Virus record (IMG/VR): IMGVR_UViG_3300020498_000003
Strand: one strand, 5' to 3'
Length of the DNA stretch: 64,000 bases
From: a virus
Taxonomy: Duplodnaviria > Heunggongvirae > Uroviricota > Caudoviricetes
Position numbers and translations under genes: made by a program. Below, in pieces: positions 24,540-44,950 of the stretch. The notes beneath the pieces are model-generated. The model worked only from the letters and a program-made list of their open reading frames with translations, ran no database searches and was not told the DNA's origin. Every line of letters begins with the position of its first letter. Positions within the stretch are counted from its first letter, which is position 1.

Positions 24540-24583
24540 TTGAGGGATTTGTGTGTGGGGTCTTTCTCAACCCCGATGAACAT

Positions 24584-24640
24584 AGTATGGCAGGGATCAG
24601 GGGGAAAGTCAAGCGTTTTCGGATAAGTGTTGCTTATGGG
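24584..24640 (-). promoter_or_regulatory. early promoter, family A: TTGACT-N17-CATACT with upstream ATAAGCAAC block
   Basis: Minus-strand TTGACT at ~24607-24612 and CATACT at ~24584-24589. The conserved gttgcttat block lies on the plus strand at ~24630. Confidence 0.55.
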
Positions 24641-24677
24641 TCTGATAAGCAGCATTTATGAGTTTTTGCTTGACAAT

Positions 24678-24911
24678 TCACCCCATTTCTTCATAATCGT
24701 ATGGGGTCAAATCCTCAGGCACATATAAACAATCATCGATCACATACTCATCCATGTAATAGTCTACTGTCACACCCATTTGTTCAGCATACCATGCAAC
24801 TTTGTGATAGAGGTCTACATCAATCTCGTAGTATTCTGTTTCGATCATTACCATTTCCATGTCAATTCTTCTCGGTTTGAGTATAGACTGCGCGGAACAG
24901 TTCCGCATCAC
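24678..24911 (-). CDS. hypothetical early protein (77 aa)
   Basis: Minus ORF. Confidence 0.45.
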   Translation of the reverse strand: MMRNCSAQSILKPRRIDMEMVMIETEYYEIDVDLYHKVAWYAEQMGVTVDYYMDEYVIDDCLYVPEDLTPYDYEEMG

Positions 24912-24986
24912 GCTGAATCAAAAATGCGTTCCATCCGATCATGAAACCAAGGGCACAAATGCCTGCTGCAATATACTTACGATTCA

Positions 24987-25247
24987 TCACCAAGTACCTC
25001 GTTGAACATGAATGTTGCGAATCTCAGTGTAAATGAACTTCTTCAGTTTTGGATCTTCAGTGTTATCAAATGCAACATATAGACGATTCAGATATTCGTC
25101 TTGTGTCATACATTTGATAGTCTTGGCACTGCTAACTCCGATCTCGTTAAGTGTAGATCCTGCCTGCACTTTGTTCTTGCCGAAGTTACCTGAGACACGA
25201 CCAGTTGTTCTCAGTTTGGGTTTGATCTTTGAGAGGTTAGAGTTCAT
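24987..25247 (-). CDS. hypothetical early protein (track 24987..25301; likely start at the Met that overlaps the upstream stop as TGATG)
   Basis: TGATG stop/start coupling with 25247..25522. Confidence 0.4.
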   Translation of the reverse strand: MNSNLSKIKPKLRTTGRVSGNFGKNKVQAGSTLNEIGVSSAKTIKCMTQDEYLNRLYVAFDNTEDPKLKKFIYTEIRNIHVQRGTW

Positions 25248-25522
25248 CAGACGAGTTGAAGTGTAGGAGCAGGTTGAACATAAATGTTGGTATTCTTGCA
25301 ACCAACGCTATAACCAGAAGGAGGCAACATCGAGCGATCATCTAACACCTTCCAGGTATCTTTAGTCTCTTCGATGACAGCAAAACCAAATTGTCCTGCC
25401 ACACACATATTATCAAGACCAAACCTTTCAGCAGCACGAGCAGTAGAATGACTGCTCTTCATGTTATACCAATGGTTCGGAATGTCAGAACGACCGAAAC
25501 AAATGCAGAGGTAATTAGTCAT
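25247..25522 (-). CDS. hypothetical early protein (91 aa)
   Basis: Minus ORF. Confidence 0.45.
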   Translation of the reverse strand: MTNYLCICFGRSDIPNHWYNMKSSHSTARAAERFGLDNMCVAGQFGFAVIEETKDTWKVLDDRSMLPPSGYSVGCKNTNIYVQPAPTLQLV

Positions 25523-25543
25523 GAGTTTGTGTAAAGAATAGAA

Positions 25544-25774
25544 TCAGAAGTGTGCTTCGGACCAGTCAAGTTGTGCAGAAAACTCTGCAATCAAATTATA
25601 GCATTTGGTGCGAGTTTGCTCATCAGCACCCTGCATGAATGAGAGGCAATACTTCATCTTTTGCTCGGGATGTGCGTTGATTCGTGCAATCTCTGCTTTC
25701 TGCTTTTCACGGTAAGAATTATAAGCAAACATCTCACGATCTTCGATGCTCATGTTGTGAAACTGGCGTTGCAT
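25544..25774 (-). CDS. hypothetical early protein (76 aa)
   Basis: Minus ORF downstream of a family-B promoter and conserved leader. Confidence 0.45.
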   Translation of the reverse strand: MQRQFHNMSIEDREMFAYNSYREKQKAEIARINAHPEQKMKYCLSFMQGADEQTRTKCYNLIAEFSAQLDWSEAHF

Positions 25775-25825
25775 TTGTGTTAGTTAAGAGTGTGTGGGTT
25801 AGGGTCTCTCTCAACCCCGATGAAC

Positions 25826-25868
25826 ATACAATAGAGCATCTGCAGGATGCCCGTAGTTCGTGGTGATA
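25826..25868 (-). promoter_or_regulatory. early promoter, family B (conserved CCGTTTTGTATCACCACGAACTA block plus CTATTGTAT -10 region)
   Basis: Near-identical block again at ~26846..26888. Followed by the conserved leader GTTCATCGGGGTTGAGAGAGACCC. Confidence 0.4.
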
Positions 25869-26088
25869 CAAAACGAGCAATCCATTGATCAGTGCTGTTT
25901 ATGAGTCAAACTCTAACCCATAACTTCTCTGCATACCTTAAATTGCTCCCATTCGCTATCATCAAAGTTGTCAGATGCGTATGGGATGCCTACCATGATC
26001 GAACAATACCGATCCACATATTCAGGATTGGGTTGCATGTTTGCCTGCTTTGCTGATAGGATGGCAGCGAGAAGAAACTCTAAAGTCA

Positions 26089-26301
26089 TCAACCACCACC
26101 GTACTCATATGCTACAATACCAGCAGGATGATTCACACCTTCGATAACAGTGAACTTGCCATACTTATCGAACTCATCAGCATGATATTCGCTGAACTCT
26201 TTGATAAAGAACTCACGGCACTGTTCTTTAGACTCAGCAGCAATTACACACATTCCAGAGGTGTAATCAGACAGGACATTGTTGATGATATAGAGATTCA
26301 T
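26089..26301 (-). CDS. hypothetical early protein (70 aa)
   Basis: Minus ORF. Confidence 0.45.
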   Translation of the reverse strand: MNLYIINNVLSDYTSGMCVIAAESKEQCREFFIKEFSEYHADEFDKYGKFTVIEGVNHPAGIVAYEYGGG

Positions 26302-26304
26302 GAT

Positions 26305-26466
26305 TCAGACAGAAGGAGTAACTTCGATTTCTTTAATGTTCAACCCACAGAGTTGATTGTAGACACGATTGAGGATCAATTTGTCTGCGGTCTTTGCATT
26401 GGATTTCTCATACCAAATGGTACAACATCCATCGTTAGTCTCAACACGAACGCGATAGTTTTTCAT
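26305..26466 (-). CDS. hypothetical micro-protein (53 aa, MKNYRVRVETNDGCCTIWYEK...)
   Basis: ATG..TGA ORF that tiles between its neighbours. Not in the track. Confidence 0.3.
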   Translation of the reverse strand: MKNYRVRVETNDGCCTIWYEKSNAKTADKLILNRVYNQLCGLNIKEIEVTPSV

Positions 26467-26474
26467 GATCAGAA

Positions 26475-26648
26475 ACGAATGATAGGATGGTCTAAATCAA
26501 GAACCTCACATTCTTGAGTGGAATACACTAATTCTACACTTGCTTGATAATACTCATCAGGTTCATCTTCAGAGCAAATAGCAACATCCTGATTCAGTTG
26601 ATCTTCAGAAAGTTGTTGCAGTTGTTGCAGGAGTTCTTTATAGGTCAT
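26475..26648 (-). CDS. hypothetical acidic micro-protein (57 aa, MTYKELLQQLQQLSEDQLNQ...)
   Basis: ATG..TGA ORF that tiles between its neighbours. Not in the track. Confidence 0.3.
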
Positions 26649-26651
26649 GAT

Positions 26652-26816
26652 TCAGTAGTTAGAAACAACGGTGAAGATGATGCCAGTCTCGTTATAACGA
26701 AGAGTCACATCACAGTAATACTCTTCAGACAGATTGTATGCGAGATCGTATGCACTATCGAGATCGGTAGTAGTGTTCTCCCAGGGAGCAGAAGGACAGA
26801 GGACATCGATTCGCAT
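26652..26816 (-). CDS. hypothetical early protein (track 26652..26888; the real start is probably MRIDVL at ~26816)
   Basis: The track start would overlap the family-B promoter. Internal ATG follows an aacga x3 tandem repeat. Confidence 0.4.
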   Translation of the reverse strand: MRIDVLCPSAPWENTTTDLDSAYDLAYNLSEEYYCDVTLRYNETGIIFTVVSNY

Positions 26817-26845
26817 TCGTTTCGTTTCGTTTGGTATGCATATAG

Positions 26846-26888
26846 TATGGCACGGATCAGGTGCCCTGTCTAGTTCGTGGTGATACAA
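26846..26888 (-). promoter_or_regulatory. early promoter, family B (second copy)
   Basis: tgccatactatatgc plus ctagttcgtggtgatacaaaacgg, conserved with ~25826..25868. Confidence 0.4.
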
Positions 26889-27095
26889 AACGGAAAATTG
26901 GTTGAGTCTCCTGAGACTGGGGTGAGATCTGAAATGCTGCTGCTGATAGGATGCCTCTCAGTCTCGGGTGCGTCTTGCCTGAGATCCCTTGCCACCACTG
27001 GGGTCAAAACCCGAAAAATTGACGATTCTGGGGTGGGGGTGCTAGTGTGCGTCCCCCACAATCCCAGAGCAGAAAAAATCGAAAGTATAAAGAAC

Positions 27096-28328
27096 TCACC
27101 GAGTCATGGTGGAAATAGCAGGGAGACCTTGCACGAAGATGGTATCGACAACACCCTGCAATCGCTTGGCAATAGCACTACCGTAGTTGGTGAACACTGG
27201 CACAACTACACTACCAAACTGCTTGCGATACAGATGACATGCACCAGCAGGAATCTTGCCAGTAGCAATATCCTTGGCATCATCTTTGTCCATACGGATA
27301 ACACGACCGACTGTTTGTGCCATCTCGATGATAGGCATCTGACGCAACATGATGCAGGTAGTCAGACCAGGAACATTGATACCTTCGGACAGGATGCTAT
27401 AGTGAAGCAGCACAAATTTCTTGCTAGGATCTTTGCCCCACTCGGTCAGAGTGTCAAAGAACTTCTCACGATTGACCTTTGTACGATTAACATAAGCACC
27501 GTGCTTAGAAGTGATGTGAAGGATGCCAAATCCACGCTCTTCGAGTTCCCGAAGAATGTCAGAGTTAGTGAGCATATTCCACATAACTTTGGTGCTGGGA
27601 GCAGCAACGAGCACCTTAGGATTGTCCTGCTCCAGACTATCGAGAATGTCCACAATCATGTTGCGGTCTGCCTCAGCAGCAGTACGCTTATCGCGGGTGA
27701 TGTCTACTTTGTAGGTCGAAACTTGCGGAGGAATGATGCAACCACCGTCGATCAGTTCTTGAGCACGAACAGTCTCAATGATCTTGCCGTAGATACCAAC
27801 ATTGTTCATTCCGTTGGCATTAGGATTTGCGTGATGCTTGGGAGTAGCAGTAAAGAAATACTTGCTATCTGCGGTCATCGAAGTAGCAGCAACCGCAATG
27901 AAGTGCTTTTTCTGAGTGGAATTGTGTGCCTCGTCGAAGTATGCCACATCGACATTCACACCAGCATCAACAACACGACCGAGAGAATGATAGGTGGTGA
28001 AGATGATACGATTAGTGTCCGCATGTTGCACAACCCAATCCGCAATCTTTTCGGAGTTGGTAGTCTTAGTGTGATGAGTTTCACCACTGTGAACATGCAA
28101 CACATTGGCACTGGTGATAAACTCCAGAAACTCTGCGGAGAGTTGCTCTGCCAGAAGGATTCGGGGTGCTACAACAACAGCAACCTGACCAGGATTCTGC
28201 ACAAATCGTTGCAGCAGATTCATGATCATGATAAGAGTTTTGCCACCACCAGTAGGCACAATGATCTGACCAATATCGTGCTGATTCATTGCATCAAGAG
28301 CACGGGATTGGTGGGGACGCAGTTGCAT
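27096..28328 (-). CDS. SF2 DEAD/DEAH-box helicase (UvsW-like / type III restriction res-like), ~410 aa
   Basis: Q-motif LRPHQ, Walker A VPTGGGKT, DEAH box FDEAH, motif III TATP, motif VI QTVGRVIR. The likely start is the internal ATG at 28328 (track start 28385 is a TTG inside the promoter). Confidence 0.8.
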   Translation of the reverse strand: MQLRPHQSRALDAMNQHDIGQIIVPTGGGKTLIMIMNLLQRFVQNPGQVAVVVAPRILLAEQLSAEFLEFITSANVLHVHSGETHHTKTTNSEKIADWVVQHADTNRIIFTTYHSLGRVVDAGVNVDVAYFDEAHNSTQKKHFIAVAATSMTADSKYFFTATPKHHANPNANGMNNVGIYGKIIETVRAQELIDGGCIIPPQVSTYKVDITRDKRTAAEADRNMIVDILDSLEQDNPKVLVAAPSTKVMWNMLTNSDILRELEERGFGILHITSKHGAYVNRTKVNREKFFDTLTEWGKDPSKKFVLLHYSILSEGINVPGLTTCIMLRQMPIIEMAQTVGRVIRMDKDDAKDIATGKIPAGACHLYRKQFGSVVVPVFTNYGSAIAKRLQGVVDTIFVQGLPAISTMTR

Positions 28329-28356
28329 AACGAAGTGATTTGCTTGGTATGTGAAT

Positions 28357-28410
28357 ACAATAGGGCATCTGGGGGCACAAGTCAACCCCTCAACGATCAG
28401 CAGTGCTTAT
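28357..28410 (-). promoter_or_regulatory. early promoter, family A: TTGACT-N17-TATTGT embedded in a GGGG..CCCC hairpin, with upstream ATAAGCAC-CTGATCG block
   Basis: Minus TTGACT at ~28380-28385 and TATTGT at ~28357-28362, with a 17-nt spacer. The stem pair is GGGG/CCCC. Confidence 0.6.
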
Positions 28411-28685
28411 CAGACTGATTCAGTTAGCTTATCTTTTAACTTTTGCATCGCAGAGTAACATGTAGTCTGCTCCAGTTTGACTACACTACCCACTGTCTTA
28501 CTATTAACTGGTGCGTGGAATTGTTTTGTCTTGGTGTTGTAGAATCCCCAGATAGACTTAACACCAGAGCACCCACAATAGTTAAAGTGATTGTCATTAA
28601 CAATCCAGATTGCAGATACATTTGCCTTGAAATCTGTGCGTTCATAGTGATAACCTTCAGGGGCCTTGTGAAATAACAACTTCAT
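28410..28685 (-). CDS. hypothetical early protein (91 aa)
   Basis: Minus ORF. Confidence 0.45.
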   Translation of the reverse strand: MKLLFHKAPEGYHYERTDFKANVSAIWIVNDNHFNYCGCSGVKSIWGFYNTKTKQFHAPVNSKTVGSVVKLEQTTCYSAMQKLKDKLTESV

Positions 28686-28888
28686 GAGATTGCCTTAGGA
28701 AGACCTACAACAATGAAGAACGCCAGAAGTGCAACAATGTCCCAACACTTATTCTGAACCATGTAGGGGAGCGCCAGGATGTTGCCTGCAAGGTATAACC
28801 GAGCACCAATCACCTCATCAACATATAAGGTGATTACATATGCGAAACACAGTACAAAACTGGAGATGATTCGTGCTTTGTCAGTCAT
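28682..28888 (-). CDS. small membrane protein (68 aa, two predicted TM helices)
   Basis: Hydrophobic stretches FVLCFAYVITLYV and IVALLAFFIVVGL. Overlaps neighbours by 4 nt. Confidence 0.45.
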   Translation of the reverse strand: MTDKARIISSFVLCFAYVITLYVDEVIGARLYLAGNILALPYMVQNKCWDIVALLAFFIVVGLPKAIS

Positions 28889-29076
28889 CGTGTTTGATTG
28901 CGATACTTTCGTTTGGTATATTTGCTCACAATACTATCAATCACAGGATACCATGGTTCTTTATTGCTAGGGTATCCAAGTTGCCGTGCTTCAGTGAGCA
29001 ACAGCATGATGCAGTTCTCTTCTTCTTGAGTGAGATTGAGGTAGTTGATAATACTCGTTTCAGTCATCATCTTCAT
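28885..29076 (-). CDS. hypothetical early protein (63 aa)
   Basis: Minus ORF, coupled. Confidence 0.4.
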   Translation of the reverse strand: MKMMTETSIINYLNLTQEEENCIMLLLTEARQLGYPSNKEPWYPVIDSIVSKYTKRKYRNQTR

Positions 29077-29425
29077 CAGTAAGGTTTGCCCATTGATCGT
29101 AGATTGCAGGTTCTACATCACCTAGAAGTTGTTGTGCATAGTGTAGAGTTCCCCTCTCAAAATAACCATTGCGAAAGTCATCAGTTTGCCCCCGATGTTT
29201 ATACCAACTGAGAACACCATGACCAACATCAAAACGACTTACGATTGCCATGTAGTTATCATCACACCACACTTTCTTCTCTTCTGCAATATCACGAAGA
29301 GCATTAAGTGTAGCACAGTTCCAGTTGCGTTCTAGAAAGTTACCATTCTCATCAAATCCACATTTGGGATCATCACCAGACCAATCTTTCACTCTAGTAG
29401 AACAACGAGGACATTTGTAAGTCAT
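29060..29425 (-). CDS. zinc-ribbon protein (121 aa; CPRC...C..C)
   Basis: N-terminal CxxC motif and a downstream Cys pair. Confidence 0.45.
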   Translation of the reverse strand: MTYKCPRCSTRVKDWSGDDPKCGFDENGNFLERNWNCATLNALRDIAEEKKVWCDDNYMAIVSRFDVGHGVLSWYKHRGQTDDFRNGYFERGTLHYAQQLLGDVEPAIYDQWANLTDEDDD

Positions 29426-29588
29426 TTGATTTCAGTTAAAGTAATCAGTCCAGCAGAGGATCTTCCTTTTCGATGTCATCTTGCATATCAAGAGGCATCA
29501 TATCACGATCATCAATGTCGAGATCAAAGATCTCACCAGGCATGTCCATGATTTCGTCCCACATGTGCTTTGTTTCGATTACTTTGTA

Positions 29589-29650
29589 ATGATAGGGTGG
29601 ATCGGTGCCAAAGTCAACCCCTCAACGATCAGGGTTGCTTATGGTTCACC
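29589..29650 (-). promoter_or_regulatory. early promoter, family A: TTGACT-N17-TATCAT
   Basis: Minus TTGACT at ~29612-29617 and TATCAT at ~29589-29594, plus the GTTGAGGGGTTGAC and ATAAGCAACC blocks. Drives an acidic 39-aa micro-ORF (~29446..29565) and the zinc-ribbon gene. Confidence 0.55.
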
Positions 29651-30551
29651 AGTGCTTAGGCAAAGTAAAGTTATAGAACGAGAACTTCTGCCGTTTGACT
29701 AACTTGTAAGCACCGAACTGGTTAGACATAACGAAACCCTCATGATTGACTGCTTCGTAGTCAACACCAAGGTCGATGATAGTGTCAACAACCTCAACAG
29801 ATTTCAGACCTTCCATAATCATCTCCTTTGCCTTGGTGATGAGATTGAACAGCAGCAATAAGTTGCCGTCGATAGCATCAACAGGACGATTATCACGAAT
29901 GCACTTGTTAATCAAGATCTGCAGTTTTGCTACTTCTTTTGCATCAGGGTACTTAACAAAATTGCTAACCACACTTGCAAGACCAAGAATGTAATCAACT
30001 CTACGACGACGGGAGGCAACAACTGCATCAGTATTTACAAAATAGGTAGACATGAAATTGTGCTTGAGATACTCTGGCACACTGAAACTTGCTTGCAGAG
30101 TCTTCATCGTATCGCCATGATAAGAAGTATGACAAGCAAACACAATAGAAGCAGAATCGGGAATGGAATCGAAAGTGTAAGTGATAGTATTGGGAGTAAA
30201 CTGATTCGTACCACCAAAACCAATAAAATCACCTTGATAAATGCCTTCCAACCTCGGAAGAGTTTCAAGACAGGTGTGAAGGATTGCGGCGACTTTCTGG
30301 TTCGTGCCATGATACTTCTCGATGTCAGCGTGAGTATAATTGATCTTCACTTTGACCTTGTTGAATACACTTTTAGTGCCAACAAAAAACTTACCATTCT
30401 CAGGATTCGTGCCAAATACAATAGCAGGAGCACCGTCCCATTTCACAGTGACAGTAGAATCACGATAACGCAGAAACTTGATAACATTCTGCACAGATTC
30501 CTTGCCCAGCAGTACAGAATCTTCGGGATGTTCGAGATGGGTGTTTTTCAT
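29646..30551 (-). CDS. putative ATP-dependent polynucleotide (RNA/DNA) ligase-like nucleotidyltransferase (~302 aa)
   Basis: Motif I KWDG, candidate motif III YQGDFIGFG, motif IV EGFVMS and motif V KLVKRQK, in ligase/capping-enzyme order. No OB domain. The start is taken at the ATG (MKNTHLE) downstream of the promoter; the track start is a TTG inside the promoter. Confidence 0.4.
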   Translation of the reverse strand: MKNTHLEHPEDSVLLGKESVQNVIKFLRYRDSTVTVKWDGAPAIVFGTNPENGKFFVGTKSVFNKVKVKINYTHADIEKYHGTNQKVAAILHTCLETLPRLEGIYQGDFIGFGGTNQFTPNTITYTFDSIPDSASIVFACHTSYHGDTMKTLQASFSVPEYLKHNFMSTYFVNTDAVVASRRRRVDYILGLASVVSNFVKYPDAKEVAKLQILINKCIRDNRPVDAIDGNLLLLFNLITKAKEMIMEGLKSVEVVDTIIDLGVDYEAVNHEGFVMSNQFGAYKLVKRQKFSFYNFTLPKHW

Positions 30552-30557
30552 GTCTTT

Positions 30558-30606
30558 AGTATGGCACAAAAAAAGGGGGAAGTCAACCCCTTAGGACCAG
30601 TTCGCT
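30558..30606 (-). promoter_or_regulatory. early promoter/terminator composite, family A: GGGGTTGACTTCCCCC hairpin + T8 + CATACT
   Basis: Minus TTGACT at ~30581-30586 sits in the loop of a GGGG/CCCC stem followed by TTTTTTTT. CATACT follows at a 17-nt spacer. Confidence 0.6.
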
Positions 30607-30624
30607 GACTGGCATATGGTATAA

Positions 30625-31248: not shown

Positions 31249-31269
31249 TTGTTTAATCTCAACCAACAT

Positions 31270-31330
31270 ACAATACAAAAAAAGAGGGGTGTTGTCAACC
31301 CCTCAATGATCAGCGTTGCTTATTGCTCTT
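31270..31330 (-). promoter_or_regulatory. early promoter/terminator composite, family A: GAGGGGTTGACAACACCCCTC hairpin + T7 + TATTGT
   Basis: TTGACA-N17-TATTGT. The -35 lies in the loop of a 7-bp GC stem followed by a T-tract. Confidence 0.6.
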
Positions 31331-32407: not shown

Positions 32408-32435
32408 AGTTTAGTTAGGGAGTAAGGAACAGGAA

Positions 32436-32752: not shown

Positions 32753-32761
32753 AGTTAATTC

Positions 32762-32892: not shown

Positions 32893-33168
32893 TTAGAGAT
32901 TGATTGGGCAACAGGAACCGATGCGAATTTGAGTGTAAGAACCAGATTTAGGGATCAAAGTGTGATGAATCCCATAATAATAGCGGCGAGCATTTGTCTC
33001 GCTGATATTAAGTGCAAGTGCAATATCCTTAAAGGTATAACCTTGCTTACGCAGACTGTTACATCGAACAGTCCAGGTTAATGATTCATCAGTAGCACTA
33101 ACTGTAGAAGTTTCCCGTGCTTTAGGAATACGAAACATCACAACCTTCCTGCTTGATTGACAAAACAT
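32893..33168 (-). CDS. HTH DNA-binding protein (sigma-70 region-4/LuxR-like helix-turn-helix)
   Basis: GYTFKDIALALNISETNARRYYY is a classical HTH. Confidence 0.45.
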   Translation of the reverse strand: MFCQSSRKVVMFRIPKARETSTVSATDESLTWTVRCNSLRKQGYTFKDIALALNISETNARRYYYGIHHTLIPKSGSYTQIRIGSCCPINL

Positions 33169-33827: not shown

Positions 33828-33885
33828 AGAATAGGGCATGACCCCACCAAAGTCAAGGGGTCATGGATTAGTGTTGCTTATGAAT
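33828..33885 (-). promoter_or_regulatory. early promoter, family A: ATGACCCC-TTGACTTTGGT-GGGGTCAT hairpin with TTGACT-N17-TATTCT
   Basis: 8-bp stem with the -35 in the loop. Upstream ATAAGCAACAC block. Confidence 0.55.
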
Positions 33886-34589: not shown

Positions 34590-34782
34590 CGTCTTTCAAC
34601 TTCTCCTGATTAACATAGTCCTGTAGGATTTGTTCAAGCATAGCAGTGATCTGCTCCTCTGTCAAGTTATTCATGAAAGTATATTTCGGATCTTCAGGAT
34701 CCCATTCGATTGTTAGAGTACCATCAGGATTCTCAGTTACTCTCAAAGTGTCATTCTCAAACTCTCTAAATTCTTCACTCAT
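34582..34782 (-). CDS. hypothetical protein (66 aa)
   Basis: Minus ORF. Confidence 0.4.
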   Translation of the reverse strand: MSEEFREFENDTLRVTENPDGTLTIEWDPEDPKYTFMNNLTEEQITAMLEQILQDYVNQEKLKDDE

Positions 34783-38546: not shown

Positions 38547-38743
38547 TTGAGGAGACCTTGAAGAAGGAGAATAATGAAGATAATAGCAAGGACAGTGAGA
38601 CCAATCAGAGCACTAATCCACAGCGGCGACAGCACCCACCACCAAGACCAAGTGATGTTACCAGTAAGTTTCAGACCAATAAACAGAACAGTCAGCAGAC
38701 CAGGGAATCCGATACCGCTGGAAGAAGAAGAGTTGCTGGACAT
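38543..38743 (-). CDS. small membrane protein (66 aa, Trp-rich, two TM helices)
   Basis: Hydrophobic LLTVLFIGL and ISALIGLTVLAIIFIILLL. Immediately downstream of a family-A promoter. Confidence 0.45.
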   Translation of the reverse strand: MSSNSSSSSGIGFPGLLTVLFIGLKLTGNITWSWWWVLSPLWISALIGLTVLAIIFIILLLQGLLK

Positions 38744-38767
38744 GGCGTGTCTTTCGTTGATGAATAC

Positions 38768-38825
38768 AATATAACACCCCCCAACAGCGTTGTCAAGGGG
38801 TGATTGATAAGCATTGCTTATTGGT
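38768..38825 (-). promoter_or_regulatory. early promoter, family A: CACCCC-TTGACAACGCTGTT-GGGGGGTG with TTGACA-N17/18-T(T)ATATT
   Basis: -35 in a hairpin loop. Upstream ATAAGCAATGC block. Confidence 0.55.
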
Positions 38826-39468
38826 ACTTGGTAAAAATATTAGTTTGCCTTTGTTTGTGTTGCATTTCTTTTTTCTTAATGTGAGAAGCAAAGGCAAGAT
38901 TGTCAATTACTGCAAGTTTCTGCATAATGTCACTCTTAGTGTTATTGAACTCCTTTTCAGGATCATACTGAGAGAAGAAATTACTTTCTTTCAACATCAC
39001 TTGACCAGTTCCGTAGTTGTAGTTAATGCAATCTAGATAATCGAAGATGTTAAACAAGCACAGATCAGTAGACAAATTATCTTTGGAAGATCCTTTAACA
39101 TTGATAACAAAAATATAGTATGAATCAATCTCTCCAGAGTCAAACTTGGTAAGAAGTCGGTCGAAAGCTACCATATTGGGTTGACCTTTTCCCTTTTCAT
39201 ATCCCAACTTAACATTCACAAGAGTATTACCTTTCCACACAAAATCTTCCATCTTTCTAGTTTGCTTACCCTTACCTTTAACCTTTGATGGTTTGCTAAA
39301 ATTAGCATCTATGCTTGCAAGTTTATCAACAAGATTCTCTTCTACCATTTCACCAAAAGAGTGACCAGGTTCTTTAACTGTAGGATCAAATCCAACTTCA
39401 TTTAGGCACAAGTCAATATTATCTTTGACCAGTTCCAAGATATAAAGTTGCTCTTGCTTAGTGATCAT
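38818..39468 (-). CDS. hypothetical protein (216 aa)
   Basis: Minus ORF downstream of a family-A promoter. No confident motif. Confidence 0.5.
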   Translation of the reverse strand: MITKQEQLYILELVKDNIDLCLNEVGFDPTVKEPGHSFGEMVEENLVDKLASIDANFSKPSKVKGKGKQTRKMEDFVWKGNTLVNVKLGYEKGKGQPNMVAFDRLLTKFDSGEIDSYYIFVINVKGSSKDNLSTDLCLFNIFDYLDCINYNYGTGQVMLKESNFFSQYDPEKEFNNTKSDIMQKLAVIDNLAFASHIKKKEMQHKQRQTNIFTKYQ

Positions 39469-39487
39469 TTAGTGTTTGTATTTCACA

Positions 39488-39545
39488 TACAATAACACCC
39501 CTCAACCGAAAAGTCAAGGGGTGATTGATAAGTGTTACGGATAGG
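39488..39545 (-). promoter_or_regulatory. early promoter, family A: CACCCCT-TGACTTTTCGGTTG-AGGGGTG with TTGACT-N17-TATTGT
   Basis: Same architecture as the other family-A copies. Confidence 0.55.
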
Positions 39546-40056
39546 TGCCGACGATCTCAATAGAATATCTTATCTGTCCACCAAATCCAGTAAAAGATGT
39601 ATCTATCTCTGCTTTAAGTTCGGATACTGTTGCCTTTCGATCTGCAACTTCCTTCATAACTTTACAGAACTGCTGATCCATTTGTGTAGTGTTAGGAAAG
39701 CAGAAGTTATTTGGTACTACAGAGGAAACACTTGTGCCATTACTAATCAGTGCATCAGCTTTGATATAATCACCATTCATACTCATTCTACCATTCGATA
39801 CAGTAGCAGTAGGAATGACTTGATCAGTTAAACCATTATATACTGAAAGTTCGTTAGTAGCAGCATTAAAAGATAGTTGTCCATGTATAGGAGCATTAGT
39901 AATTGCAGTAGTAAATGCACCACTATGAAGTGCAGATAACTTACTCTTCAATTCTTCTCTAAGTTCATCCTCTTTATCTTCTACAACTTCCTCTACAATT
40001 TCTTCTTTCTTTTCACCATACATTTCGTCGAATGTATCAAGCAACGGATTAGTCAT
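39535..40056 (-). CDS. hypothetical protein (173 aa)
   Basis: Minus ORF. Confidence 0.45.
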   Translation of the reverse strand: MTNPLLDTFDEMYGEKKEEIVEEVVEDKEDELREELKSKLSALHSGAFTTAITNAPIHGQLSFNAATNELSVYNGLTDQVIPTATVSNGRMSMNGDYIKADALISNGTSVSSVVPNNFCFPNTTQMDQQFCKVMKEVADRKATVSELKAEIDTSFTGFGGQIRYSIEIVGTYP

Positions 40057-40318
40057 AATCTCTCCGATAATACTCTAAGTTGCGGGGGGCAGTTGTAAGA
40101 AAATCACAGCGAATCTCAAACCATTTCCAGCGGAATGAGAATCCTGTTACAGATCGACTGCCAAAACTAATCAGCAGCATTGGAAATAGTTCAGTGGCAG
40201 GGTAATCATCCCACTGAATAGAAACATCCATCAGTGCGAATAGAGGATACCATGGGAAAAGTTGAAAATACCATTCATGCCCAAAGTCTTCGTAGTGACA
40301 GTAATCAAGGAGTTTCAC
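40049..40318 (-). CDS. hypothetical protein (89 aa)
   Basis: Minus ORF. Confidence 0.4.
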   Translation of the reverse strand: MKLLDYCHYEDFGHEWYFQLFPWYPLFALMDVSIQWDDYPATELFPMLLISFGSRSVTGFSFRWKWFEIRCDFLTTAPRNLEYYRRDYD

Positions 40319-40527
40319 AGGTTTTCTACCTCTTTAGATAGAGTCATCATATCACTCCTGTCAAGTACAGTCAAGTTATTGAGTTTCTGTGCTGTCATGC
40401 TCTTCACATGTTCCATGGTTTTGCGAATGATAGCAGCAACAAGTTTCTGCTCTGTATCTGCCCATGTGTTTCGTTCATTCCACACAGCATCCATTAGTTT
40501 TTGTGCTCTATCAGTCATCATTATCAT
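40315..40527 (-). CDS. hypothetical protein (70 aa)
   Basis: Minus ORF. Confidence 0.4.
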   Translation of the reverse strand: MIMMTDRAQKLMDAVWNERNTWADTEQKLVAAIIRKTMEHVKSMTAQKLNNLTVLDRSDMMTLSKEVENL

Positions 40528-40858
40528 CCCAAGGTGCTTTACGATTCATAAGATCTTTAAGTGTTTGTTTTATTGATGGTGGATTTGCAATCATATGCAT
40601 CAGTTTATCATAATCTTCCTGAGAAACATAAATCTTCTCTGGTTCCTGTGCTAATCGCATCTTGCGTTCTGGACTGATAGTTATATTGTATGGGTCATCA
40701 TAAGGATAGATGTATTCTTGCATCCATCCAATACTCAATGCTTCCCAGAACTCCTGATAACCCCATTCATCACCGTCATCATAACAGTCAAGAATATACA
40801 GGACATTATGAAATCCATCAAGGAAATCTTGCCACTTTGATTGAGTCTCAAATCTCAT
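40511..40858 (-). CDS. hypothetical protein (115 aa)
   Basis: Minus ORF. Confidence 0.45.
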   Translation of the reverse strand: MRFETQSKWQDFLDGFHNVLYILDCYDDGDEWGYQEFWEALSIGWMQEYIYPYDDPYNITISPERKMRLAQEPEKIYVSQEDYDKLMHMIANPPSIKQTLKDLMNRKAPWDDNDD

Positions 40859-41042
40859 TCCATTCCTCGTATCTGGTGTTTATTTTACCATTGTTGAGGA
40901 AGATATTCAAGTGCCCTGTGCGACCATCCTCAAAATAGAATGCCATCCACACATGCTCGCCTTCATCCATCACTTCATAGTGGTAGGATTTGATATTATC
41001 CAGCAGAAACTCGTCTGGGTTGAATAGTTCTTTGTCAGTCAT
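40848..41042 (-). CDS. hypothetical protein (64 aa)
   Basis: Minus ORF. Confidence 0.4.
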   Translation of the reverse strand: MTDKELFNPDEFLLDNIKSYHYEVMDEGEHVWMAFYFEDGRTGHLNIFLNNGKINTRYEEWNEI

Positions 41043-41341
41043 GAGTAATTAAAGTGTAAATGTGTTTCCCAAGTAAATGCTGGTTGGTCTCTCCTTTGCA
41101 TCATTTCTGCGACGAAATATGGAATAAAACTTGTGTATTTGTCCAGAAACTCCCTCTCAGTAAGTTCATCAAATCCGTGCATATAATGATCACAATCAAC
41201 AAACTTTGCAAACTTTTCATATTCACGATCTCTATCATCAACTCTTTGATAGTTGCGACAGATCTTCAACCAGAATGAACGACCTTCACCAGTTGCACAA
41301 TAATCAATCGCAAAGAAACGATAAAAAGGTTTGTCATCCAT
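41039..41341 (-). CDS. hypothetical protein (100 aa)
   Basis: Minus ORF. Confidence 0.45.
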   Translation of the reverse strand: MDDKPFYRFFAIDYCATGEGRSFWLKICRNYQRVDDRDREYEKFAKFVDCDHYMHGFDELTEREFLDKYTSFIPYFVAEMMQRRDQPAFTWETHLHFNYS

Positions 41342-41735
41342 TGTTTTGTCTCACTCTTTTAAGAAATGCAGTTGCCTGCTCATCCAATCGTTCAATCAAA
41401 TCCTCAATATCAGAGATCGCAATCTCATTATACTCACGATTGAGGTTCTCACAACGCAAAGCATCAATCATAGATTGAAATGCAATCATTTGTTGATGCT
41501 CTGGTGTGATAGGTGTGCCGTGAGGAAGTCCAGCACATTCCATATTGTAGTAGTCGTTATATCGTTGAAGAACACGATTGCTCTTCTCACGACGCTCTGC
41601 TTCTTCAAGCATTTGTTCATAGTTCATAGTGTTTTTCCTCGCTGCCCAACCTAAATTGGGCCAAGTATCATGATAGATTTGATTTAATTTTTCATTATCG
41701 TAAATCATGCAACGAATCCCCATACTTTCCACCAC
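41334..41735 (-). CDS. hypothetical protein (133 aa)
   Basis: Minus ORF. Confidence 0.45.
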   Translation of the reverse strand: MVESMGIRCMIYDNEKLNQIYHDTWPNLGWAARKNTMNYEQMLEEAERREKSNRVLQRYNDYYNMECAGLPHGTPITPEHQQMIAFQSMIDALRCENLNREYNEIAISDIEDLIERLDEQATAFLKRVRQNNG

Positions 41736-42031
41736 TTACCAAGATTCAATGCAGCAATAATAGTTACAAACTCCCTATCTGCAAGTTCTTGATTTAGTGC
41801 TTCTAGTGTATCTGGATCAAAGCAAGATGACCAACGATCATATGCACATCGAAATACATCTGCCCACAAATCTCTTGTAGGAACCTCAAAGTTATCCTTC
41901 ATGTCTAGTTTATAATATGGGCAACTTTCTGAGCACATATAAGCATATGCCAAAAGTTCTCCCAGAGTATCGTCTTCTACTTCATTGATACCCTCAGAAA
42001 AATTAGATACATCGAATGAATTAAAGGTCAT
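41705..42031 (-). CDS. hypothetical protein (108 aa)
   Basis: Minus ORF. Confidence 0.45.
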   Translation of the reverse strand: MTFNSFDVSNFSEGINEVEDDTLGELLAYAYMCSESCPYYKLDMKDNFEVPTRDLWADVFRCAYDRWSSCFDPDTLEALNQELADREFVTIIAALNLGKWWKVWGFVA

Positions 42032-42184
42032 TTAATCACCCCAACAGATTTAAGATACCTACGATATGCCATATATCTACCAAGTTTTGGTTGTCCTGGT
42101 ACATCTAACTGATGACAGATTTCACAATACATTAAAAACTCATACCATGGCGTAGTAGGATCTAGCACATGATATGGATATTGT

Positions 42185-42460
42185 TTAGAGTTTTCCACCT
42201 ACCACACCTTCATACGAAGACCCAACATTTTCACCCCATCCTTCTTGTATTCCTTTAAGATAAAACCTGGTGGCAGAAATACATAATTCTTTCGTGAGGG
42301 ATGTGATAAGTGGTTTCCCATCTTTGTCAAAAGAATGCCACAGTTTGTACGGAGTTTCTTCAACATAAAAGGCATCATCATAGAAAGTTCGTTCGTTGTT
42401 CTGGTTGTCTTGGTTGCTCATCTGGCACTCCTTCAATAATAATTTGTGCTGGTTCATCAT
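42185..42460 (-). CDS. hypothetical protein (91 aa)
   Basis: Minus ORF. Confidence 0.4.
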   Translation of the reverse strand: MMNQHKLLLKECQMSNQDNQNNERTFYDDAFYVEETPYKLWHSFDKDGKPLITSLTKELCISATRFYLKGIQEGWGENVGSSYEGVVGGKL

Positions 42461-42617
42461 TCCAGTGCCGAATTACACCAGCAACAATAAAACAGTTTGT
42501 AATAAGATAAGTTGCAAATATAATAGTCCTGACAATCGCAACTTTATCAGCAACACAATCTTTCTTGTGTGCCTTTTCTCCTAGTGCCTTTGCCCACAGT
42601 CTCCACATTACACCCAT
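42378..42617 (-). CDS. hypothetical membrane protein (79 aa)
   Basis: Hydrophobic segment IIFATYLITNCFIVAGVI. Confidence 0.35.
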   Translation of the reverse strand: MGVMWRLWAKALGEKAHKKDCVADKVAIVRTIIFATYLITNCFIVAGVIRHWNDEPAQIIIEGVPDEQPRQPEQRTNFL

Positions 42618-43135
42618 TCTGGTTTCCTATCTGGTTTACGAAGATAATTATCCTTTACCCAAGGTTTAGATGCAACATACATTTTATATGCTGTAAAAGT
42701 ATCTATGCTAGTATCAAGTTTGTACTCTTCGGGCATAGCACGGGCAAAGTAATCTGCCATACTATAGCATGTAATTGCTTTGCCTGTCTTCTCATGAAAG
42801 ATTTTCTTCGCATTGAAAAGACTATTATTGCAGGCATGAATCTTGCCATACCGATATTTGTATTCGGTACAGAGTGCAAGACCATGTACAATCAACCAGG
42901 CAGTATTATAGATATTCTTTGCTGCCCATTGTGTGCAGGGATGGTTGCGAAATGCACCACCTTTAGTTTCATAATCGCATCCATCTTTCTTAGGGATAGT
43001 TCCCCAATCGTAGTACCACTTAGAATAAATGATAGAAAGCATCTGACACGATTCTAGAGGCATTTTTACCACATGTTTGTCAGGCAAAACCCGAGCAGAT
43101 TCATGTGGATTGTTAGATGTCACGAAGATATTCAT
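42608..43135 (-). CDS. putative pyrimidine-dimer DNA glycosylase (Pyr_excise / DenV-like)
   Basis: N-terminal IFVTSNNPHESARVLPDKHVVKMPLESCQML and the central GGAFRNHPCTQW resemble the conserved N-terminus and GYRNHPQ block of the PF03013 family. Recalled from memory, not searched. Confidence 0.5.
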   Translation of the reverse strand: MNIFVTSNNPHESARVLPDKHVVKMPLESCQMLSIIYSKWYYDWGTIPKKDGCDYETKGGAFRNHPCTQWAAKNIYNTAWLIVHGLALCTEYKYRYGKIHACNNSLFNAKKIFHEKTGKAITCYSMADYFARAMPEEYKLDTSIDTFTAYKMYVASKPWVKDNYLRKPDRKPEWV

Positions 43136-43585
43136 GATAAAGTTTGATGTACTTCTGGTAGAGCAGTTCTAGTGTAGCAGCATCTCCTGATTCGTCAAGT
43201 TCCAACATGCGATCTCTCGCATCTTGCAACAAATCACAGACTCGCATAACTCGTAAGTGTTTCATTATGTCGTCTGTTCCCTAACTTGTGTGTAGACAAC
43301 ATCAAACATTTCATCAAGAATTTCAGAACAACGCCAATACTCATCACTATTGAGAACAGTTTTGTCCAGTTGATAACGACGGACTGCATCATAGATGAGT
43401 CGGAGTTCTGCGTGATTAAACTTCGGAAGTGTAGTCTGGGTCATGATACTTTAGATACTCACGAAAGGTCATTTTCATTTCTTTCTGCGTCATACCACAG
43501 TGGGCAGCAGCAGTAGGAAGATTCATCGTAGCACGAAATAGTGCTTGATTTGCTTCCTTAACATTTTCTGGTGTGGTTTTTACTG

Positions 43586-43786
43586 TCATCTAAAATCTTC
43601 AGGTTGCAAATTATCAAGTTTATCAAACAGTTTATCAACTGATTTCAGTTTTTCAATGTGACACATCAATTCTGCGATTGCTTGATTGATCATCGGTCGT
43701 TCATTTCGTGCAGCAAAAGCAAGTGCATTACGCAACGATGCTTGTGCTTCATCCAGTGATTCTTCTACTTGTGGTGATAATGCCAT
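43586..43786 (-). CDS. hypothetical protein (66 aa)
   Basis: Minus ORF. Confidence 0.4.
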   Translation of the reverse strand: MALSPQVEESLDEAQASLRNALAFAARNERPMINQAIAELMCHIEKLKSVDKLFDKLDNLQPEDFR

Positions 43787-43971
43787 TAGTCAGATGCTCT
43801 CCAGTGTGTAAGTTTAACTCGTTTATCTTGAAACTCTTCAACTGCTTGAAGAATCATTTGAGCAGATTCTTGAGCATCTGCTTCATCCCAACCGTCACCA
43901 TGTTGCCCACTGATGTAGTAGGCATATAGTTGATCTTTAATTACATCCATTAGTTTGTCGTAGTGTGTCAT
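43786..43971 (-). CDS. hypothetical protein (61 aa)
   Basis: Minus ORF; ATGA coupling. Confidence 0.4.
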   Translation of the reverse strand: MTHYDKLMDVIKDQLYAYYISGQHGDGWDEADAQESAQMILQAVEEFQDKRVKLTHWRASD

Positions 43972-44108
43972 CCTACCAGTTGTCGAATAAGTTCGTCTTC
44001 ATCGCCAAGAACTGCATCAGTCCAGTCCTCATCTTCATCAAACTCATTGATACGATCGTATTGATCAATCGCAGAGAAATCGAAGTTGTCCATCAGGTCG
44101 TTTGTCAT
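43968..44108 (-). CDS. hypothetical acidic protein (track 43968..44159; start likely MTNDLMDNFDF at ~44108)
   Basis: Internal ATG sits downstream of the -10 TATAGT. The track start would lie inside the promoter. Confidence 0.4.
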   Translation of the reverse strand: MTNDLMDNFDFSAIDQYDRINEFDEDEDWTDAVLGDEDELIRQLVG

Positions 44109-44118
44109 TAACAGGATT

Positions 44119-44160
44119 ACTATAGGGCAAAGAAAAGGGGGTGTCAAGCCCCCAATCAAT
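44119..44160 (-). promoter_or_regulatory. early promoter/terminator composite: GGGGG-CTTGACA-CCCCC hairpin + TTTTCTTT + TATAGT
   Basis: TTGACA-N17-TATAGT. The -35 is in the loop of a perfect 5-bp GC stem followed by a T-rich run. Confidence 0.65.
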
Positions 44161-44396
44161 CAGTTCTTCTTATGATTCCACGGAATCGGTGGAAGTCCTA
44201 ACTCTTTATTAAACTTATTCAGATCTCTAAGAAGTTTCCACTTCAGATAGATTCTCATAACTTCTGTCTGTGCATGACGAAGTTTAAGATTGATAAAAAT
44301 TAAAACTCGGTTCATTCCTTCTGGATAAACCCAGAAGAAATAACCAAGGACACACAAAAATGTGACAAAAGAGTAGTAGGATAAGTTTGTAATCAT
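44160..44396 (-). CDS. membrane protein (78 aa; N-terminal TM helix)
   Basis: YYSFVTFLCVLGYFFWVY hydrophobic segment. Confidence 0.45.
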   Translation of the reverse strand: MITNLSYYSFVTFLCVLGYFFWVYPEGMNRVLIFINLKLRHAQTEVMRIYLKWKLLRDLNKFNKELGLPPIPWNHKKN

Positions 44397-44690
44397 TTAT
44401 TTTTGTAGATAGGGATCAACTAATCTGAGAAGATGTTCCCACATTTGCTTCTCTTGTTTAGTTGGTTGCTTTACTGATTGATCCCAGTCAAGCAAAACAT
44501 TGGTGAGAAACTTACATTCCTCAGCAGAAAGTTCAATTTGAGTCATTGGTGATTGGAGTTTCATAGTTAGTAGTAATCAGTAGTGTACTCGACATCGAAT
44601 TCTGGATAATCATCGTACTGATCATCATCAACATTGTCAAACTGCTGGGATTCAGCAATAGTTTCGTAGTTAATTTGGTCTTGGTTCATA

Positions 44691-44879
44691 TCAATACTGA
44701 TCTTCTTCATAATAATCCGATACATTATTGACATTGAACTTTTTGGAACCACGCTTCTTGGAACGAGGATTGTCTGAATACTCATCACGATAACGCTCAG
44801 AAGATCCCTTTTGACGCTTATCGCGCAGAGATTTGCCCCAAGAGTTGTGATGATCATCACGACGGAAAGTGCGACCCAT
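44691..44879 (-). CDS. small Arg/Lys-rich basic protein (62 aa)
   Basis: Starts right after the promoter at ~44915-44945. An acidic 40-aa ORF follows (track 44567..44860, internal start ~44689). Confidence 0.4.
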   Translation of the reverse strand: MGRTFRRDDHHNSWGKSLRDKRQKGSSERYRDEYSDNPRSKKRGSKKFNVNNVSDYYEEDQY

Positions 44880-44914
44880 TAGTGTTTGTTTTGCCTTGAA
44901 TGAACTACCTCTAT

Positions 44915-44950
44915 ATAGTACCGCAAAAAAGAGGGGGTGTCAAGCCCCCT
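44915..44950 (-). promoter_or_regulatory. early promoter/terminator composite: GAGGGGG-CTTGACA-CCCCCTC hairpin + T6 + TACTAT
   Basis: TTGACA-N17-TACTAT with the -35 in the hairpin loop. Confidence 0.65.

Follow-up and report, generated by a model that had tools for sequence, protein, structure and literature searches.

The 64,000-nucleotide (nt) stretch of DNA analyzed here (IMG/VR virus record IMGVR_UViG_3300020498_000003), which we refer to as the window, carries ten repeated promoter-like elements on its minus strand, set among small genes. Its 28-34 kb portion matched Synechococcus phage S-CREM1 with 84.6% identity over 61% of the query (Megablast). S-CREM1 is a T4-like cyanomyovirus of the Kyanoviridae whose host is Synechococcus sp. 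CB0101, and the matching stretch of its genome is a long series of small, same-strand, mostly hypothetical genes adjoining baseplate genes. We assign the window to a portion of a T4-like cyanomyovirus (Kyanoviridae), a relative of S-CREM1 that is uncultured or unlisted. Its 21-46 kb region is a hyperplastic early region made of small minus-strand ORFans, and the majority of the open reading frames (ORFs) flanking the elements were without a Pfam match. A cluster of tRNA genes lies at 62-63 kb.

Ten putative promoter elements on the minus strand

An earlier note on this DNA had described ten minus-strand copies of a promoter layout with a constant 17-nt distance between the -35 and -10 hexamers. 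All ten copies were found, with the first T of the -35 at positions 24612, 28385, 29617, 30586, 31298, 33856, 38796, 39517, 44147 and 44943, and in every one of them TTGAC(A/T) was followed, after exactly 17 nt, by a hexamer of the form YAnnnT. The pattern TTGACW-N17-YANNNT occurred 21 times in the window, in comparison with 5.6 ± 2.3 times in dinucleotide-preserving shuffles, and 20 of the 21 matches were on the minus (gene) strand. Each of the ten elements is located in an intergenic gap of 50-280 nt, directly 5' of a minus-strand ORF. A sequence-only profile (R1) was built from 40 related elements of IMG/VR contigs, the window sequence being excluded, and run against the window with filters off; its top ten matches, all of them on the minus strand, were exactly these ten elements (E values from 4e-14 to 0.0016). 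At the orthologous S-CREM1 sites the two hexamers and their spacing were preserved and the flanks diverged. The features of the individual elements are collected in Table 1.

The layout that the earlier note had attributed to the whole family turned out to be a composite. Each of its parts was found, but an upstream block, GGGG, the -35, CCCC and a T-run stand together only in P31298, the sole copy with every feature, which lies within a segment missing from S-CREM1. The upstream block, thought to be common to all copies, was present with 0-2 mismatches in six of them, degenerate in P39517, P44147 and P44943, and absent from P30586. The hairpin with the -35 in its loop was likewise a partial feature: a hairpin was predicted in eight copies, six of them with the -35 in the loop and two (P39517 and P38796) with the -35 in a 12-bp stem, and none was predicted in P24612 or P29617.

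The elements are closely packed against the flanking genes. The stop codon of the upstream gene is contained in or overlapped by the block in four copies, and at the other end the start codon lies 6 nt past the -10 hexamer in P30586 (30551-30563, minus strand) and 10 nt past it in P44147 (44108-44124, minus strand), which implies leaderless or nearly leaderless mRNAs for these two. None of the leaders had a Shine-Dalgarno-like motif within its last 18 nt, a result that rests on greedy ATG calls, some of them probably wrong; P33856, for one, has an earlier ATG that is preceded by GAGG at about 10 nt. The AT content of the 25 nt upstream of the elements was 0.40-0.64, as compared to 0.62 for the whole window.

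Table 1. Coordinates and properties of the elements and associated features in the window (all on the minus strand; dG, predicted folding free energy in kcal/mol; R1 E, E value of the match to profile R1)
Feature	Position	Block	-35 or box	Hairpin and T-run	-10	dG (z)	R1 E	Context
P24612	24583..24638 (-)	24622-24637	TTGACT 24607-24612; 17-nt spacer	no hairpin at -35	CATACT 24584-24589	0	4e-14 (48.6 bits)	S-CREM1 ortholog L001 9261
P28385	28356..28411 (-)	28395-28410, overlapping upstream TGA stop	28380-28385, in loop	GGGG/CCCC; no T-run	TATTGT 28357-28362	-11.8	2.2e-12	5' of DNA helicase gene
P29617	29589..29643 (-)	29627-29642	29612-29617	no stable hairpin	TATCAT 29589-29594	(+1.0)	3.4e-12	leader palindrome ATTACAAAGTAAT 29578-29590
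P30586	30557..30593 (-)	none	in loop	AAGGGG-TTGACTTC-CCCCTT 30573-30592; T7 30568-30574	CATACT 30558-30563	-8.4	5.6e-6	5' of DUF6267 gene; S-CREM1 ortholog L001 16775
P31298	31269..31323 (-)	31308-31323, its TAA the upstream stop codon	in loop	GAGGGG-TTGACAA-CACCCCTC 31284-31304; T7 31277-31283	TATTGT 31270-31275	-11.9 (-2.8)	4.3e-12	
P33856	33827..33882 (-)	33866-33881	33851-33856	9 bp, CATGACCCC/GGGGTCATG around -35, arms swapped; no T-run	TATTCT 33828-33833	-16.0 (-3.1)	1.7e-10	orthologs in S-CREM1 and L127
P38796	38768..38821 (-)	ATAAGCAATGCTTATC 38806-38821, its TAA the stop of the 216-aa ORF	38791-38796, in stem	12 bp, 38775-38802	TATATT 38768-38773	-17.7 (-4.1)	2.2e-7	
P39517	39489..39542 (-)	degenerate, 39527-39542, containing upstream TAA stop	39512-39517, in stem	12 bp, 39496-39523	TATTGT 39489-39494	-18.1 (-4.9)	4.4e-6	
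P44147	44118..44174 (-)	degenerate, shifted, ~44157-44174	in loop	GGGGG-CTTGACA-CCCCC 44137-44153; TTTTCTTT 44129-44136	TATAGT 44119-44124	-9.5	2.5e-7	S-CREM1 ortholog L001 30030, same tail
P44943	44915..44966 (-)	CTTATC remnant	44938-44943, in loop	10 bp, GAGGAGGGGG...CCCCCTCTTT ~44928-44954; T6 44925-44930	TACTAT 44915-44920	-16.8 (-3.1)	0.0016	
Family 2, 25.85 kb	25828..25902 (-)	ATAAACAGCACTGATC 25887-25902	no -35; box CGTTTTGTATCACCACGAACTA 25854-25875	spacer hairpin 25834-25852	TATTGT 25828-25833		0.052 (block only)	
Family 2, 26.87 kb	26844..26892 (-)	none	weak -35 TAGACA 26867-26872; box CGTTTTGTATCACCACGAACTA 26871-26892	spacer hairpin GGCAC...GTGCC	CATACT 26844-26849			
Leader module CATCGGGGTTGAGAAAGACCCC	24557..24578 (-)			GGGGT/ACCCC hairpin				predicted 5' end of P24612 transcript
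Leader module CATCGGGGTTGAGAGAGACCCT	25801..25822 (-)							downstream of 25.85-kb promoter
216-aa ORFan	38821..39468 (-)							between P39517 and P38796; absent from S-CREM1; no Pfam match

Hairpins around the -35 and their T-runs

The eight hairpins had predicted folding energies of -8.4 to -18.1 kcal/mol. Their arms are arranged as GGGG..CCCC, except in P33856, P38796 and P39517, where they are swapped (CCCC...GGGG). Fold stability reached z values of -2 or below in six of the ten copies. In addition, the ten 41-nt element segments were more stable than a background of 3500 41-mers taken from that strand and region (Mann-Whitney p = 5.5e-5), whose folds had a mean of -5.2 and a standard deviation of 3.2; a dG of -9.5 or lower was obtained for eight of the ten segments and for 10% of the background. 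Shuffling of the flanks within each element was an uninformative control, since a G-rich 5' flank and a C-rich 3' flank still pair after shuffling, and the genomic background and an arm-swap comparison were used in its place. The latter was carried out on 108 different elements carrying the block, drawn from the window, S-CREM1 and metagenomic contigs, in which a helix enclosed the -35 in 53 elements, a hairpin lay within the spacer in 7, and neither was predicted in 48. Folding with their own arms gave -8.06 kcal/mol, as compared to -6.08 kcal/mol with exchanged arms (p = 0.0013). T-runs of at least four residues were present in 13 of the 53 elements with a hairpin versus 3 of the 55 without (Fisher p = 0.005).

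Positional orthologs in S-CREM1 have stems that differ in sequence yet still bracket the -35. In the counterpart of P28385 (L001 12381) the stem is TCTAGG/CCTAGA and a T5 run is present; the counterpart of P30586 has the stem GGGGTC/GACCCC with an identical T7 run; and the stem of P33856 has undergone a compensatory G:C to A:T change in its two orthologs. We regard the hairpin as a frequent, selected and optional module that, when a T-run follows it, has the anatomy of an intrinsic terminator. A search of Rfam returned at gathering score only five tRNAs, and nothing credible at E ≤ 1 within 22-46 kb, so the leader and the hairpins belong to no known RNA family.

The four copies in which the earlier note had seen T-runs (P30586, P31298, P44147 and P44943) were all scored as terminator-like by our scan. 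A GC-rich stem of 5-10 bp with a loop of 7-8 nt is followed in these copies by T6-T8, 3' of the stop codon, that is, a hairpin with an immediate U-tract, which the other six copies do not have. They differ from ordinary intrinsic terminators, with which they share the GC stem, the short loop and the T6-T8 after a stop codon, in that the -35 hexamer serves as the loop and the promoter spacer as the U-tract, which places terminator and promoter within the same 35 bp. The view that one compact element ends the upstream transcript and restarts transcription is consistent with the sequence and comparative evidence, but as stated it would apply to these four copies only and not to the remaining six.

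A conserved dyad block upstream of the -35

The upstream block is a 16-nt dyad, (C/G)ATAAGCAAC-N-CT(G/A/T)ATC, located 9-10 nt upstream of the -35. With up to three mismatches allowed, ATAAGCAAC-N-CTNATC was found 18 times in the window, with 8.1 expected; with up to two, there were seven copies, all on the minus strand and all in elements. Its symmetry corresponds to ATNAG-N5-CTNAT, and the most symmetric copies (GATAAGCA-N-TGCTTATC) match on the opposite strand too. A scan of IMG/VR for ATAAGCAACNCTNATC gave at least 120 loci. Among the 133 matches listed, 56 (49 distinct) were followed by TTGAC, a 17-nt spacer and a -10, and the distance from block to TTGAC among the distinct matches listed was 9 nt in 35, 10 nt in 13 and 8 nt in one. 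Over more than 100 elements, the block was far better conserved than the neighbouring linker, stem and spacer. True copies in the complete 178-kb genome of S-CREM1 were confined to 76-86.5 kb, among small hypothetical genes. The promoter of the DUF6267 gene carries the block in contig L028, and its versions in the window and in S-CREM1 are block-less and of the terminator type.

The block was also present in T7-like phages, where the same architecture was found 5' of the early region and of the RNA polymerase gene. One such contig, L104, whose genes include those of a DNA polymerase, a primase-helicase and an RNA polymerase of the T7 type (phrog_414, E = 2.7e-209), has S-CBP2 and Syn5 as its nearest isolates (about 46% amino-acid identity). 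It carries, 5' of its early region, a tandem pair of blocks, CATAAGTCAAGCTTATC-ATTGA-CATAAGCAACACTTATC, with a 22-nt period, 9 nt before TTGACA. The isolate S-CBP1, which has the same host as S-CREM1, carries ATAAGCAACGCTGATG, with one mismatch, 42 nt upstream of a TTGACA-N17-TATGGT promoter, and three degenerate copies were found in the freshwater myovirus isolate DSL-LC03. In the T7-like contigs L104, L086, L063, L025, L035 and L108, the tandem-block promoter is followed by a conserved GC-rich untranslated stretch, CATCGGATCGAGAGGAGCCGCCGCGAAGGCAGGCC..., and then by a second TTGACA promoter; the stretch could form a structured leader or give rise to a small RNA at the early end.

A search for an early protein or regulator common to the block-bearing myoviruses and podoviruses found none, and the genes shared by S-CBP1 and S-CREM1 were only psbA, hli, a thyX-like gene, and genes for lysozyme and a lipoprotein. 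The lack of a common regulator argues against a shared phage-encoded binder and for a host component. Two phage-encoded candidates were discarded: the product of a 91-aa ORF at 32896-33168 (minus strand), with a sub-threshold Sigma70_r4_2 helix-turn-helix (Pfam, E = 0.0045), is absent from S-CREM1 and from all fetched loci, and a podovirus MarR protein is absent from S-CREM1. In 185,579 species genomes, block-N9/10-TTGAC gave six matches, none labelled as a cyanobacterium, in a search that degenerate host sites could escape. Orthologs of the window elements are present in at least one of these, L127, which looks like a mis-binned phage contig.

Several known signals were compared with the block. 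The earlier note had proposed either an UP element or a binding site for a host or phage factor. An UP element, with A/T-rich tracts at -40 to -60 contacted by the alpha C-terminal domain, was rejected because the block is a dyad of mixed composition and is not A/T-rich; a binding-like site is plausible, considering the dyad, its fixed distance from the -35 and its occurrence in T7-like cyanophages. A Pho box (CTTA-N7-CTTA) was rejected by inspection: the 24.6-kb copy can be read as three CTTA/CATA repeats spaced by 11 bp, but most copies cannot, and the block, unlike a Pho box, does not extend over the -35. Regulation through Dam and GATC was set aside as well. Many elements have a GATC both in the block, at its 3' end (CTGATC), and at positions 9-12 of the spacer (for instance, window 29612-29632), yet GATC is not required, because the variable base of the block is G, A or T. 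In some copies the two GATCs pair as an outer helix around the -35, as in L049, L085 and L126 (dG about -23).

The block also resembles operators of the LysR and MarR types. The RbcR (LysR-type) motif is ATTA(G/A)-N5-(C/T)TAAT (PMC13249358), and a SlyA/MarR-type site, cited in PMC9692554, is TTAGCAAGCTAA. The block shares with these dyads the 5-N5-5 arrangement ATNAG-N5-CTNAT, which satisfies T-N11-A. On the contrary, its 5' half-site is ATAAG and not the ATTAG of RbcR, only the copies with CTAAT fit the 3' half-site, the centre of the block is near -53 instead of -90 or -10, and the search turned up no host sites that match. We take this as a resemblance only, useful for leads. No paper pairing 'ATAAGCAAC' with 'cyanophage' was found in a literature search; the dyad block, for which we found no earlier description, may be a new cis-element.

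Putative family-2 promoters and leader modules

The shared block that the earlier note had reported at about 25.84 and 26.87 kb exists in both places as a 22-nt box, CGTTTTGTATCACCACGAACTA. This box replaces a proper -35 and holds GTA-N8-AAC 22-23 nt upstream of the -10. The consensus of NtcA-activated promoters is GTA-N8-TAC, and cyanomyoviruses have been reported to carry such promoters. The NtcA box typically lies about 22 nt upstream of a TAN3T -10, centred near -41.5, in promoters with no -35. The family-2 sequences match the consensus at five of six positions and resemble NtcA class II promoters in their placement and in the absence or weakness of the -35; they differ from them in the second half-site, which is AAC and not TAC, and in the conservation of the whole 22-nt box and not of the half-sites alone. 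The 25.85-kb copy carries the dyad block 21 nt further from the -10, equivalent to two helical turns, and the block is the only part of it matched by profile R1. The 26.87-kb copy is without the block and has a different leader. A more fitting description of family 2 would be a promoter of the activator type that has an NtcA-box-like sequence but lacks a proper -35.

The leader GTTCATCGGGGTTGAGArAGACCC, which the earlier note had assigned to the second family, is not found at 26.87 kb and is instead common to the copy at 25.82 kb and to the family-1 copy at 24.58 kb. The P24612-type leader module was also found in the IMG/VR loci L028, L068 and L105. A leader starting with CATCGG about 6 nt past the -10 and continuing into a GGGG...CCCC hairpin occurs at 24557-24578, 25801-25822 and about 23345-23380 (minus strand); T7-like contigs and S-CBP1 likewise have a CATCGG leader after their block-bearing promoter. 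The sequence CATCGGGGTTGAGArAGACCC would put a hairpin within a few nt of the mRNA 5' end, and the CATCGG leader might stabilise the 5' terminus as a hairpin or else be an initial transcribed sequence that is conserved as such.

Cassette shuffling in comparison with S-CREM1

Comparison with S-CREM1 revealed an aspect that the earlier note had not seen, namely recombination and cassette shuffling at the elements. The segment 38743-39474 of the window, which contains the 216-aa ORF and P38796, is an insertion with respect to S-CREM1 (blastn), bracketed by the near-identical P39517 and P38796. S-CREM1 has at this place a single chimeric element; in a three-way alignment, its 5' half and upstream flank resemble P39517, and its -10 and downstream gene resemble P38796. 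Furthermore, the P29617 cassette has been relocated in S-CREM1 together with its small ORF (L001 10011-10104), and an indel of a 2OG-Fe(II) oxygenase gene adjoins the 5' edge of P28385, with a synteny break at 28412/28420. Being similar to one another and all repeated in the same orientation, the cassettes would serve as crossover points at which ORFans are inserted, deleted or moved.

Other promoter-like sites and repeats

A divergent promoter-like site lies on the plus strand at 24645-24697, back-to-back with P24612. It consists of an inverted block (ATAAGCAGCATTTATG), 9 nt, TTGACA, 16 nt and CATAAT, with 11 of 12 consensus matches, and the same arrangement was found in contig L111. The inverted block and that of P24612 form a 15-bp inverted repeat at 24623-24659, and the site would transcribe antisense to a 76-aa ORF (24681-24908). 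A perfect palindrome, ATTAC-AAA-GTAAT, covers the -10 end and the predicted start site of P29617 (29578-29590, minus strand); variants of the form TTAC-N3/4-GTAATC recur in many metagenomic elements, and the palindrome could be a repressor operator or a 5' hairpin. For this site, the 21-mer TATCATTACAAAGTAATCGA was 95% identical to intergenic DNA of the marine cyanomyoviruses Syn1, S-RIM44, S-CAM7 and MbCM1, but with an E value of 7. Two intergenic copies of an operator-like inverted repeat unrelated to the block, GTTTTCCACA-N14/15-TGTGGAAAA(C), were observed at about 23565-23599 and 22947-22981 (minus strand).

Two sites inside the 3' ends of ORFs, TTGAC(A/T)-N17-TATGAT at 40346-40374 and TTGACA-N17-TATGCT at 34637-34665 (both on the minus strand), have neither block nor hairpin and are conserved at the orthologous positions of S-CREM1 (L001 25008 and 20021, respectively); both may act as internal promoters. 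Three more TTGACA-N17 promoter-like sites were present on the minus strand within or close to the tRNA cluster, at 63788-63816, 63298-63326 and 63107-63135, the first of which was a weak match to R1 (E = 0.011).

Discussion

The ten elements are probably (with a probability of roughly 0.7) early promoters recognised by host RNA polymerase in its unmodified form, together with the primary sigma factor, and organized as cassettes of the type known as promoter-early stem-loops (PeSLs). The definition of PeSLs comes from RB49 and phi1, two T4-like phages, in which sigma70 promoters are combined with GGGG..CCCC stem-loops, some of which overlap the -35 (Arbiol et al. 2010, PMC2839356). Their promoter and terminator activities were demonstrated there with lacZ fusions, and the stem-loop terminated as well as rrnB T1 in the reporter assay; neighbouring PeSLs also recombine, excising ORFans as mini-circles, and the RB49 junctions fall in the loop (PMC2839356). 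Comeau et al. 2014 (PMC4122927) extended them to T4/PST and KVP40/nt-1, describing "composite promoter-terminator motifs". Few were reported in S-PM2, the sole cyanophage examined for them, and promoters and terminators are not discussed in the S-CREM1 genome paper. Our interpretation is essentially the published PeSL model in a lineage where PeSLs were undocumented.

The likeness between the window elements and PeSLs extends to several levels. Both have a sigma70-type -35 and -10 separated by about 17 nt, as do all ten copies here, and a stem-loop of G-runs and C-runs whose position is variable (overlapping the -35, within the spacer or elsewhere), present here in eight of the ten copies and in both family-2 spacers. 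Both are intergenic and occur among small ORFans of hyperplastic regions, where they would insulate and restart transcription, and at both, closely related phages differ by indels or replacements whose junctions hold chimeric elements. The elements also agree with the sigma70-like early promoters predicted in the marine cyanomyoviruses S-PM2 and Syn9 (Clokie et al. 2010, PMC2984593; Sullivan et al. 2010, PMC3037559), which are of the host type, lie 5' of early genes in phages without alt, mod, motA and asiA, and are presumed to be read by unmodified host RNA polymerase; those promoters were described as a -35/-10 motif only, with no mention of an embedded terminator hairpin or an upstream block.

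Several points weigh against this interpretation. In contrast to PeSLs, the region upstream of the window elements is not AT-rich and holds instead the 16-nt dyad block, and no clear Shine-Dalgarno sequence was recognised with the start codons as called; moreover, the host is cyanobacterial, some copies are nearly leaderless, and the block is shared with T7-like podoviruses. Promoter, terminator and mini-circle activities were demonstrated for PeSLs; for the window elements, architecture, conservation, location, strand bias and recombination junctions are observed, and promoter activity, early timing, termination and binding to the block are inferred. With two copies hairpin-less and four hairpins lacking a U-tract, termination cannot be ascribed to the family as a whole. 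Among the T-run hairpins, two are barely more stable than shuffles (z of -1.2 and -0.35), and flank-preserving shuffles often keep the pairing, given the G-rich sequence on one side and the C-rich sequence on the other. Intrinsic termination in picocyanobacteria is itself poorly characterised. As for the block, no exact copy was found in any cyanobacterial species genome, so that a host regulon using it is hypothetical.

The hairpins could have a role other than termination, being recombination hot spots or targets of recombination proteins, as Arbiol et al. (PMC2839356) speculated for GGGG...CCCC motifs, or else stabilisers or processing signals at the RNA 3' end of the upstream mRNA, with the T-runs as incidental spacer sequence. 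A T-run follows only four of the eight window hairpins and 13 of the 53 related ones, and the crossover junctions fall inside the stem-loop/-35 region, in a way similar to the RB49 mini-circle junctions. We nevertheless consider this alternative unlikely, as T-runs are associated with hairpins, begin directly after the 3' arm and are kept between orthologs while the stem sequence changes, and since the PeSL stem-loop matched a bona fide terminator in the reporter assay. It is far less probable still, to the point of being barely credible, that the elements are a dispersed selfish repeat, similar to miniature inverted-repeat transposable elements, whose resemblance to sigma70 promoters is a coincidence. 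They are indeed repeated, similar to each other and linked to rearrangements; however, all copies point the same way as the genes and have a start codon 0-60 nt downstream, conservation is strongest in the two hexamers and their exact 17-nt spacing while the intervening sequence varies freely, no terminal inverted repeats or target-site duplications are present, and T7-like phages have this architecture ahead of their early region and their RNA polymerase gene.

Regarding the block, it might have no binding function and represent inherited homology, homogenised by recombination or gene conversion and transferred horizontally between co-infecting phages. PeSL-type cassettes do recombine, no exact copies were found in host genomes and no cognate protein was identified. 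This explanation seems to us rather doubtful in view of the conservation of the block, far above that of linker, stem and spacer in more than 100 elements, its fixed distance of 9-10 nt to the -35, its dyad symmetry, the 22-nt period of the podovirus tandem pair, the two-turn displacement in family 2, and its presence in T4-like and T7-like phages that are otherwise unrelated in sequence. We tentatively favour, while giving it rather less than an even chance, the proposal that the block is a host-factor site recruiting a host protein to the first promoters of T4-like Kyanoviridae and T7-like Autographiviridae. These phages infect estuarine and freshwater Synechococcus, and the candidate protein may be a LysR-like or MarR-like regulator or the alpha subunit of RNA polymerase. 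Under this proposal the block, at its fixed position, would act at the DNA level. It may be a host-specific enhancer or operator of early promoters and might couple the early transcription of the phage to the physiology of its host, a link to which the NtcA-like variant points as well.

According to the PeSL-type model that we prefer, host RNA polymerase with its primary sigma factor would start about 7 nt past each -10. In the four T-run copies, the incoming upstream transcript would fold the hairpin and be released in the U-tract, 3-5 nt before the -10; as this terminator would be wholly upstream of the new start site, the hairpin would be absent from the new mRNA. Each gene or small operon would thereby be insulated and driven by its own promoter. 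The hairpins without a U-tract would probably be attenuators or protectors of the 3' end of the upstream mRNA, and the two family-2 copies, with the NtcA-box-like sequence in place of the -35, would be activator-dependent.

This interpretation would extend to cyanomyoviruses the PeSL principle, in which a single element stops and restarts transcription and provides a handle for swapping ORFans, and it offers a testable map of early transcription units in an S-CREM1-like phage. The block would be an entry point to how cyanophages without Alt, Mod, MotA and AsiA make host RNA polymerase favour early promoters. If it binds a host factor, it would give a handle on host-range-specific promoter recognition, and also a compact, strong promoter-insulator part for engineering picocyanobacteria.

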